Below, piece after piece: positions 17,443 to 29,122 of a stretch of 32,000 nucleotides of DNA. The stretch covers positions 150,595 to 182,594 of the forward strand of contig JBHLKY010000003.1 in the NCBI GenBank assembly GCA_048886185.1. The letters run 5' to 3'. Position 1 is the stretch's first letter. The number at the start of each line of letters is the position of its first letter. Source of the DNA: Candidatus Hermodarchaeota archaeon. GTDB lineage: Archaea; Asgardarchaeota; Heimdallarchaeia; Hodarchaeales; Hodarchaeaceae. The notes under the pieces are model-generated. The model was not told the DNA's origin, searched no databases, and was given only the letters and a program-made list of their open reading frames with translations. The translations under genes were made by a program, and so were the position numbers.

Positions 17443-17545
17443 TGGGCCCACCCGGATTTGAACCGGGGATCTTTTCCTTAACATTTGGAACAAATGTTAT
17501 CTCGGTTATCAGCCGAGCGCTTTAACCAGGCTAAGCCATGGGCCC
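17443..17545 (-). tRNA. trnI: tRNA-Ile(GAU) with a 28-nt non-canonical intron at 43/44 (17473-17500)
   Basis: GGGCCCA/TGGGCCC acceptor, CTCGG-CTGATAA-CCGAG anticodon arm, CCCGG-TTCAAAT-CCGGG T arm. Removing the 28-nt hairpin insert gives a normal 75-nt tRNA. Confidence 0.93.
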
Positions 17546-28228: not shown

Positions 28229-28456
28229 GATTAGATTCACCTATTTGCTTATGCAATTCTTTGTGTTAGATTACTCGAGTAGGTAGAATGATTTGGGGTT
28301 ATAAGGATTGTTGGTTTCTATCATACGCCTTCCTTTTTTACATTGAAATTATGCAAAACCTGACTGACATCAATAAGTGATTTAGTAGAAACGTTGTTTT
28401 TTAAGATAAATCAGGATTTAAAGGATAACAGAGATCCCTTGGATGCTGAAAAAGAA

Positions 28457-28647
28457 CGCCAGGGGAGGGATTCGAACCCTCGAGTACAAAAAGTACACTG
28501 GCTTTCTGACACAGGTTATAATTCCTTAATGACTCAAGGCCAGCGCCTTACTACAGGGAAATGGGAGACCATTAACCCATCCACTTGGCTTTCGAATTGT
28601 AATACTCCATGGAGATTTAAAAGTGAAAGTATCTACAAAACCCCGGC
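28457..28647 (-). tRNA. trnS: tRNA-Ser(UGA) with three introns: 8/9 (28591-28639, 49 nt), 18/19 (about 28551-28581, 30 nt), 37/38 (28504-28532, 29 nt)
   Basis: GCCGGGG/CCCTGGC acceptor with G73, GCC/GGC D stem, CTGGC-CT-TGA-G^A-GCCAG, long variable arm GTAC/GTAC, GAGGG-TTCGAAT-CCCTC. The spliced product is an 83-nt class II tRNA. Confidence 0.9.
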
Positions 28648-28672
28648 AAAACGGATAGTTAATGATTTATTA

Positions 28673-29122
28673 TCATGTTTTATAGTCGTACATCACAATT
28701 GTTCCACCAATAGCTACAATAGTCAGGATGATTCCCATGATTAATAATGTGATGGATGTCCTTGCATCATAAGCGAATCGTGTAGAATAACGGATTAAGT
28801 AAAGGCCTCCTGAACCTATACTGAAAAATAGGCCTGCTATTAAAGATTCTACTAAGAATTGTTCACTTGAAGATTGAAAAATTGGTACAAGTTGAGTGGC
28901 CGTCTGTCCCATCGGTAGTGGTTGTTCTGTAACATCGTAAAGTCCACCAGCTAGAATGAATACAGTTGCAACGAGTATGAGGGCCAAAATATATTTATGG
29001 GGTGCTTCATAGGGGAGTTCGATATCTGGAATCCTAAAATCGATTGTGGGCTTTTTAAGGCCTGGGATCCATGGAAGTCGTTGTGGATTTTCCTTAATTC
29101 TTTCAGGTTGCTTTTTTGACAT
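28673..29122 (-). CDS. OSTC/DC2-like (OST3/OST6 family) oligosaccharyltransferase subunit
   Basis: Three TM segments. ILAGGLYDVTEQP and SEQFLVESLIAGLFFSIGSGGL match the eukaryotic OSTC pattern GGxxYDxxxxP...QYxxExxxxxxxFxxGxxG as I recall it. Confidence 0.8.
   Translation of the reverse strand: MSKKQPERIKENPQRLPWIPGLKKPTIDFRIPDIELPYEAPHKYILALILVATVFILAGGLYDVTEQPLPMGQTATQLVPIFQSSSEQFLVESLIAGLFFSIGSGGLYLIRYSTRFAYDARTSITLLIMGIILTIVAIGGTIVMYDYKT

Follow-up and report, generated by a model that had tools for sequence, protein, structure and literature searches.

A tRNA-Ser(UGA) gene with three probable introns in a Hodarchaeaceae genome, and the history of its introns within one genus

Background

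Heavily interrupted tRNA genes have already been described in archaea, and the gene analysed here adds another example. Asgard genomes are known in which inserts interrupt > 90% of tRNA genes, a single gene having as many as five, many of them at non-canonical sites; inserts in the D-arm are missed by standard callers, often have relaxed splice motifs, and are found together with alpha/beta pairs of the splicing endonuclease EndA (PMC11291895; Goswami et al. 2026 preprint, 10.64898/2026.10.13.758758). Several Heimdallarchaeia lineages have < 1 insert per gene (preprint 10.64898/2026.10.13.758758). The most relevant experimental work concerns A. pernix, whose EndA cuts the bulge-helix-bulge (BHB) intron in the D-loop of pre-tRNA-Thr(UGU) in vitro, an activity for which the Crenarchaea-specific loop (Lys44) is needed (Hirata et al. 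2011, PMC3241643). This D-loop intron is cut more slowly than an anticodon-loop intron, and an alpha'2 enzyme that is given the Crenarchaea-specific loop gains D-loop cutting (PMC3241643). In the Thermoproteales, tRNA genes interrupted by as many as three introns are a long-established observation (Sugahara et al. 2008; reviews, PMC4033280 and PMC4090602).

The gene considered here lies in a stretch of 32,000 nucleotides of a Candidatus Hermodarchaeota archaeon (Hodarchaeaceae; assembly GCA_048886185.1, contig JBHLKY010000003.1, positions 150,595 to 182,594), referred to below as the window, within which all coordinates are given. Like the published Asgard tRNA genes it has several short introns, non-canonical insertion sites, a D-arm insert that callers miss, and a genome that encodes an alpha/beta EndA pair. 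Unlike the published work, which centred on Freyr-, Jordi- and Atabeyarchaeaceae, the present analysis follows one gene over 21 genomes of a single genus, and this series yields a relative age for each intron and a test of the splice register. What is added here is a comparative dating of four introns and a revised register for the D-loop intron. With A. pernix pre-tRNA-Thr(UGU) the gene shares a D-loop intron, here probably of BHB type, and an alpha paralog that has the loop and its Lys, the A. pernix enzyme being (alpha-beta)2. However, the A. pernix intron is reported to be a canonical BHB and its cleavage was demonstrated in vitro and in vivo, whereas the motif predicted here contains an A.A mismatch and G.U pairs.

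Structure of the gene

The gene occupies 191 nt of the minus strand (28647–28457), such that gene position i corresponds to window position 28648 − i. Its ends are the acceptor strands GCCGGGG and CCCTGGC, the latter followed by a discriminator G, and its T-arm reads GAGGG/TTCGAAT/CCCTC. Three inserts of 49, 30 and 29 nt, together 108 of the 191 nt, divide it into four exon pieces. Exon 1 (G1–U8, 28640–28647) is followed by intron 1, 49 nt inserted after U8 at position 8/9 (28591–28639), and exon 2 (A9–G19, AGCCAAGTGG) covers 28581–28590, extending to A20 at 28580 in the register that we number 20/21. The 30-nt D-loop intron follows AAGTGG and occupies 28551–28580 in register 19/20, 28550–28579 in register 20/21 and 28552–28581 in register 18/19. 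Exon 3, from position 20 or 21 to G37 (28533–28550), contributes the 3' strand of the D-stem, the 5' strand of the anticodon stem and the anticodon UGA; the 29-nt canonical intron at position 37/38 follows G37 (28504–28532), and exon 4 (A38 to discriminator G73, 28457–28503) carries the long variable arm and the T-arm.

Joining gene positions 1–8, 58–67, 98–115 and 145–191 gives an 83-nt class II cloverleaf that ARAGORN calls as tRNA-Ser(tga), with a 3-bp D-stem, a 9-nt stretch for positions 13–22, a long variable arm and a normal T-arm. The minimum free energy of this cloverleaf is −37.7 kcal/mol and a tRNA-Ser is called whether position 20 is U or A; removal of the inserts restores a cloverleaf of normal length with either candidate D-loop product. 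The exons contain 60% G+C and the inserts 34%, the latter value being that of the window as a whole. The first-pass annotation of this DNA had read the locus as a tRNA-Ser(UGA) gene with three introns, including a 30-nt insert in the D-loop and a 29-nt insert after G37, and had given the introns 108 of the 191 nt. These lengths and positions agree with the sequence (49 + 30 + 29), and the three-intron reading is borne out by the ARAGORN call on the spliced 83-mer and by D-loop and 37/38 inserts at the same sites in 22 of 22 gene copies. We therefore consider it very likely that this is a real tRNA-Ser(UGA) gene with three short introns.

The gene is missed by standard tools: ARAGORN made no tRNA calls on the raw sequence of the whole window, and Rfam at its gathering score matched only an unrelated tRNA at 17443–17545. 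With relaxed Rfam thresholds, the 3' part of the gene alone scores (22.6 bits). A search of the assembly (4.84 Mb, 96% complete) for the gene gave this one match, two more matches to a loose anticodon/T-loop pattern both lying in apparent coding sequence. The other serine tRNA genes found in the genome have the anticodons GGA and CGA, neither of which reads UCA by standard decoding rules, and UCA is the commonest serine codon in five neighbouring ORFs (34 of 97). As the sole copy found, for the serine codon most used in those five ORFs, the gene is very probably functional. If it is missed, the genome would seem to have no decoder for its commonest serine codon, and missed multi-intron genes of this kind are a practical point for the annotation of Asgard genomes.

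Orthologs and the relative age of the introns

A BLAST search over 61 genomes (the source genome and 60 relatives) recovered the gene from 20 of the 21 remaining genomes in the genus, and 22 copies were parsed from 21 same-genus genomes, source copy included, one genome having two copies and one copy being cut by a contig end. An insert of 25–30 nt follows AAGYGG in the D-loop, and an insert of 20–32 nt follows CCTTGAG at 37/38, in all 22 copies. Mean identity to the source-genome copy is 93% for exons 2 and 3 and falls to 71% for the D-loop insert and 64% for the 37/38 insert. The two inserts thus occupy the same sites throughout and have evolved faster than the exons, and are therefore old introns, homologous among the copies and already in the ancestor of the genus.

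Of the 22 copies, 15 contain the 8/9 intron, and the seven orthologs that are without it read GCCGGGGTAGCC uninterrupted, which fixes the position of the 8/9 join. Eight of the 22 copies, mostly those without the 8/9 intron, contain a fourth intron of ~29 nt in the T-loop, between GGTTCGAA and TCCC. All four introns occur together in two copies (L004:1501-1721 and L006:1501-1713, from relatives G007 and G003). The 8/9 and T-loop introns are younger than the D-loop and 37/38 introns, or have been repeatedly lost. The 22-copy series, with two introns fixed in the genus, two variable and up to four in a gene, is a small data set for two questions in the 2026 preprint: how lax a motif EndA accepts in the D-arm, and how introns are gained and lost.

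The Thermoproteales belong to a different phylum, and related introns recur there in different tRNA genes, a pattern of transposition. Unlike these, the D-loop and 37/38 introns resemble no other sequence of the source genome: BLAST of both introns against that genome found no second copy of either, and there is therefore no sign of intron transposition. A box C/D guide inside the introns was considered and rejected, both being too short and no box C (RUGAUGA-type) motif being seen in them.

One relative (G012, contig C266, L005:1070-1475) has two tRNA-Ser(UGA) copies in tandem. The copy that adjoins the membrane-protein gene, which lies upstream of the tRNA gene throughout the genus, contains three introns (8/9, D-loop, 37/38) and has acceptor strands that no longer pair (GCTGGGA... 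/ ...CCTTGCAT), and is therefore probably a pseudogene. The second copy, ~46 nt downstream, is intact, without the 8/9 intron and with the T-loop intron.

Splice motifs at positions 37/38 and 8/9

Motifs were assessed against the published BHB geometry as restated in the 2026 preprint (10.64898/2026.10.13.758758), in which the central helix joins the four exon bases ahead of the 5' bulge to the four intron bases ahead of the 3' bulge, and each 3-nt bulge is cut after its second base. At 37/38 the exon helix (h) is the anticodon stem, the central helix (H) consists of C32:G, U33:A, a U34.C mismatch and G35:U (3/4 pairs), the intron helix (h') has 3 bp, and the bulges are AG^U and AA^A. Registers adjacent to this one are without the exon helix. 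The orthologous 37/38 introns have one to four central pairs (4/4 in two of them), and every one of them retains the exon helix in frame together with one or more intron pairs. The 37/38 intron is a near-canonical bulge-helix-bulge, and the earlier description of it as the canonical intron holds, with h, three of the four pairs of H, h' and both 3-nt bulges in place.

A strict hBHBh', the kind of motif cut by alpha4 and alpha'2 EndA, with 4/4 central pairs and both outer helices, is formed neither by the 37/38 insert, owing to its U.C mismatch, nor by the D-loop insert, owing to an A.A mismatch; in a motif-first scan of the source gene the 8/9 intron alone among the three reaches it (H 4/4, h 2, h' 6). 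Two further strict matches were found at gene positions 75/113 and 141/166 (window 28573/28535 and 28507/28482), where cuts would remove essential parts of the tRNA, and which are coincidences or potential mis-splicing sites. The 8/9 motif is thus the one real match among three strict motifs in the gene, and because two of those found by such a scan are clearly spurious, motif matches alone are weak evidence.

Directly upstream of G1, at 28648–28656 and the same place in L002–L021, the leader ATCCGTTTT is nearly invariant in orthologs with the 8/9 intron, and is changed or lost in orthologs without it. This suggests that the leader may be part of the splice motif of the 8/9 intron.

The boundaries of the D-loop intron

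The boundary of the D-loop intron can be written in three ways, as 18/19, 19/20 or 20/21. Registers 18/19 and 19/20 give an identical product in the source genome, because exon and insert both end in G, and register 20/21 differs from 19/20 by transferring one A to the exon and one U to the intron. The first-pass annotation had placed the intron at 18/19, on the basis of a pairing of C12–G15 with CCTG (3/4 pairs) and bulges UG^G and UA^G, while calling the choice between 18/19 and 19/20 ambiguous. This pairing is present as described and the motif is indeed relaxed, but the 18/19 register is not supported by the orthologs. In 13 of the 22, position 19 would be filled by A, C or U, so that G19 would be lost; the central helix is paired in 68% of cells over the 22 rows of the alignment, every departure being a broken pair; folding energies disfavour this register in 21 of 22 rows; and its frame includes no outer helix. 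Of the 9614 boundary pairs in the gene, 17.6% show a 3/4 central helix lacking outer helices, as do 50% of shuffled introns if any of three registers may be used. The quality of the 18/19 match is no better than chance, and there is little to recommend it as the real cut site. The same annotation had noted a hairpin of ATGGG (gene positions 68–72) with CCCAT (83–87); the two strands are complementary, but the hairpin is not conserved, with 61% of cells paired and one pair formed in just 3 of 22 rows, and we rejected it as a conserved fold.

Register 20/21, in which the intron lies between GGA and A, is alone in placing three elements in frame together: the D-stem, a central helix of 3 bp and a conserved GGG:CCC intron helix. 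Its exon helix is the D-stem, reached after the usual 13.22 mismatch, and its bulges, of 3 nt each, are G19-A-Y on the 5' side and N-W-A21 on the 3' side. In the central helix the intron strand U93 G94 U95 (28553–28555, minus strand) pairs with G18, U16 and G15 of the exon, as G15:U95, Y16:K94 and G18:U93 over the series, beside an A14.A96 mismatch that is invariant in all 22 rows. The intron helix pairs GGG (G70–G72, 28576–28578) with its 3' strand CCC (C92–C90, 28556–28558, minus strand), and these are G:C in 17, 22 and 21 of 22 rows. Exon 2 is unchanged across the 22 rows apart from Y16, and the A that follows it at 28580 is likewise invariant; this A is the base before the proposed 5' cut, and the base before the 3' cut is T in 14 rows and A in 8.

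The three central pairs of register 20/21 are formed in 95.5% of cells over the 22 rows, and several of the changes preserve pairing: position 16:94 is C:G in 13 rows, U:G in five, U:A in two and broken in two, and a G.U pair is replaced by G:C at 15:95 in four rows and at 18:93 in three. The most divergent orthologs have three Watson-Crick pairs in this helix. None of 500 shuffles matched the observed pairing or the covariation score, although the orthologs are related and this control thus overstates the support; sliding the 3' partners lowers pairing from 86% to 41–52%, a control that likewise overstates support where sequences are related. RNAalifold, run on the 22 aligned rows, retains just the D-stem plus two G:C pairs, the latter in exactly the 20/21 register of h'. 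The in-register class of motif arises in 2.1% of shuffled introns (p about 0.02), at 6 of 122 other insertion sites and at 24 of the 9614 boundary pairs in the gene. Against this register, the central helix in the source genome consists of three G.U pairs and the A.A mismatch, a nearest-neighbour model favours an uninterrupted intron hairpin (A68–G72 with C91–U95; −13.3 vs −5.4 kcal/mol), and counter-examples are found in the orthologs, with U.U at 16:94 in two and G.A at 15:95 in one. On balance, the comparative evidence inclines us towards a cut in register 20/21, which would give the mature D-loop AAGUGGAAA, and the intron probably lies one or two bases further along than first placed. The earlier statement that AAGUGGUAA is the sole acceptable mature D-loop is not supported, since register 20/21, with all its helices in frame, would give AAGUGGAAA.

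Alternative interpretations

It is possible, though we think it rather unlikely, that the same gene with the same three introns is instead cut at 19/20, within a loose internal loop, to give the mature D-loop AAGUGGUAA. In four genomes the intronless Ser(CGA) paralogs read AAGYGG-UAC-GGC, which is the 19/20 product of their own Ser(UGA) genes, and position 20 varies between A and U in the Ser(CGA) paralogs just as the base at 28550 does; but over the genus the A or U that follows G19 in intronless Ser(CGA) paralogs is uncorrelated with the Ser(UGA) gene, and position 20 therefore cannot be fixed from them. Nor do the tRNA-Ser(UGA) genes without introns that occur in other families within the class inform on the register, because they have a different, 13-nt D-loop (AAGYCUGGYCCAA). 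Bulge-helix-loop substrates are cut by EndA enzymes of broad specificity (PMC3241643), and the product is shared with register 18/19, whose central helix has three Watson-Crick pairs in the source genome. However, in most rows a cut at 19/20 is backed by just 2/4 central pairs, with neither outer helix in frame, and 18/19 is burdened with the loss of G19 in 13 of 22 orthologs, with 68% of cells paired and no compensating change, with unfavourable energies in 21 of 22 rows, and with a match quality expected by chance (the 17.6% and 50% above). A single read would decide, as the surviving registers differ at mature position 20 in the source genome, A vs U: register 20/21 predicts mature reads with A after G19 (AAGUGGAAAGGC, AAGTGGAAAGGCG), and register 19/20 (or 18/19) predicts AAGUGGUAAGGC and AAGTGGTAAGGCG.

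A more radical alternative is that the gene is decaying or non-functional, or that the D-loop insert is never removed and is kept as an oversized loop. That ARAGORN and Rfam miss the gene, that its D-loop motif is weak, and that relative G012 has a decayed tandem copy with unpaired acceptor strands would all fit such a history. We nevertheless consider it very improbable, as a single copy was found for the most used serine codon, the exons have hardly changed across 21 genomes in which the inserts drift, none of the acceptor, anticodon, variable and T arms is damaged, and the ends of the D-loop insert are conserved with changes that preserve pairing. An unspliced D-loop would be 37 nt long, and by textbook tRNA structure a loop of this size would bury G18 and G19.

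Splicing machinery and a possible order of events

The genome encodes two EndA paralogs (PF01974), one alpha-like and one beta-like. The alpha-like protein of 206 aa matches the A. pernix catalytic subunit (3p1z_B) at 2.9e-41 without a gap through the Crenarchaea-specific loop, Lys44 is kept, and the Tyr/His/Lys motifs are present. The second, of 212 aa, is without the His, and its nearest relatives are the structural units of ARMAN-2, M. kandleri and Nanoarchaeum (NEQ261). RtcB is also encoded (5.2e-160). The genome is thus predicted to encode a broad-specificity splicing endonuclease together with an RNA ligase.

We propose that the primary transcript contains three introns, at 8/9, in the D-loop and at 37/38, that would be removed by the proteins EndA and RtcB. 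The 37/38 intron would fold as a near-canonical hBHBh' on top of the anticodon stem, and the D-loop intron as a relaxed hBHBh' in register 20/21, with the D-stem as exon helix and GGG:CCC as intron helix. Cuts would fall in the G19-A-Y and N-W-A bulges, the exact sites being those predicted by the register, and ligation would produce the mature D-loop AAGUGGAAA; a crenarchaeal-type alpha/beta EndA with its specificity loop may tolerate the weak motif. The 8/9 motif pairs G1–C2 with G10–C11, and the 5' acceptor strand with the intron, while the D-loop motif requires G10–C12 in the D-stem and holds G18 in its helix and G19 in its bulge, away from the T-loop. The 8/9 and D-loop motifs would be unable to coexist, and neither of them constrains the 37/38 motif. 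In this model the elbow of the tRNA would be unable to form before the D-loop intron is removed. A tentative extension of this model, which we consider less likely than not, is that splicing runs through a succession of alternative folds, with an obligatory order or a folding checkpoint in which the elbow forms after the D-loop intron leaves, an arrangement that would date from the ancestor of the genus.

Flanking sequences and other serine tRNA genes

An ORF for a membrane protein of 149 aa lies upstream on the same strand (28673–29122) and is syntenic with the tRNA gene across the genus. Its stop codon is at 28675–28673, leaving 25 nt between stop and G1, as had been noted previously. A Pfam search of this ORF, called 'OSTC-like' in the first-pass annotation, gave no match; among its look-alike clusters in the Atlas, which are mostly archaeal (Promethearchaeota, Bathyarchaeota), OST3_OST6 (PF04756) is found in 16–31% of members. 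The sequence TATAAAA at 28684–28678 (minus strand), centred ~34 nt upstream of G1, is a candidate TATA box, and overlaps the Tyr-Lys-Thr codons at the end of this ORF, confirming the earlier remark on its overlap with the last codons of the upstream gene. It is not conserved, most orthologs having TTCAAAA or TTTAAA at that spot, and we treat it as a candidate promoter element. Directly after the discriminator, TTCTTTTT (28449–28456, minus strand) is a candidate oligo-T terminator, and T-rich trailers follow most of the orthologs.

A tRNA-Ser(CGA) gene outside the window (G000:C3:85533-85668, L185) has introns at 37/38 and in the T-loop and no D-loop intron. Across the genus the D-loop region of Ser(CGA), positions 13–22, ranges from 9 to 13 nt (AAGAGGAAA, AAGCGGTAC, AAGCTCGGAATAA). 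A contig of relative G023 (C285, L183), in an archaeal metagenome-assembled genome, carries a tRNA-Ser(UGA) of bacterial type, whose gene includes the CCA end and whose D-loop is GAGCGGTTGAA, and is probably a contaminant. A scan of the D-arm of the neighbouring tRNA-Trp gene for the same class of motif found no plausible D-loop excision. Over the whole 4.84 Mb source genome (G000) there are just 22 Rfam tRNA matches and 32 ARAGORN calls, and the latter include three 'tRNA-Pyl(cta)' and one 'tRNA-Tyr(ata)' that look like mis-parsed multi-intron genes; the tRNA-Trp of the window is one of these Pyl calls.
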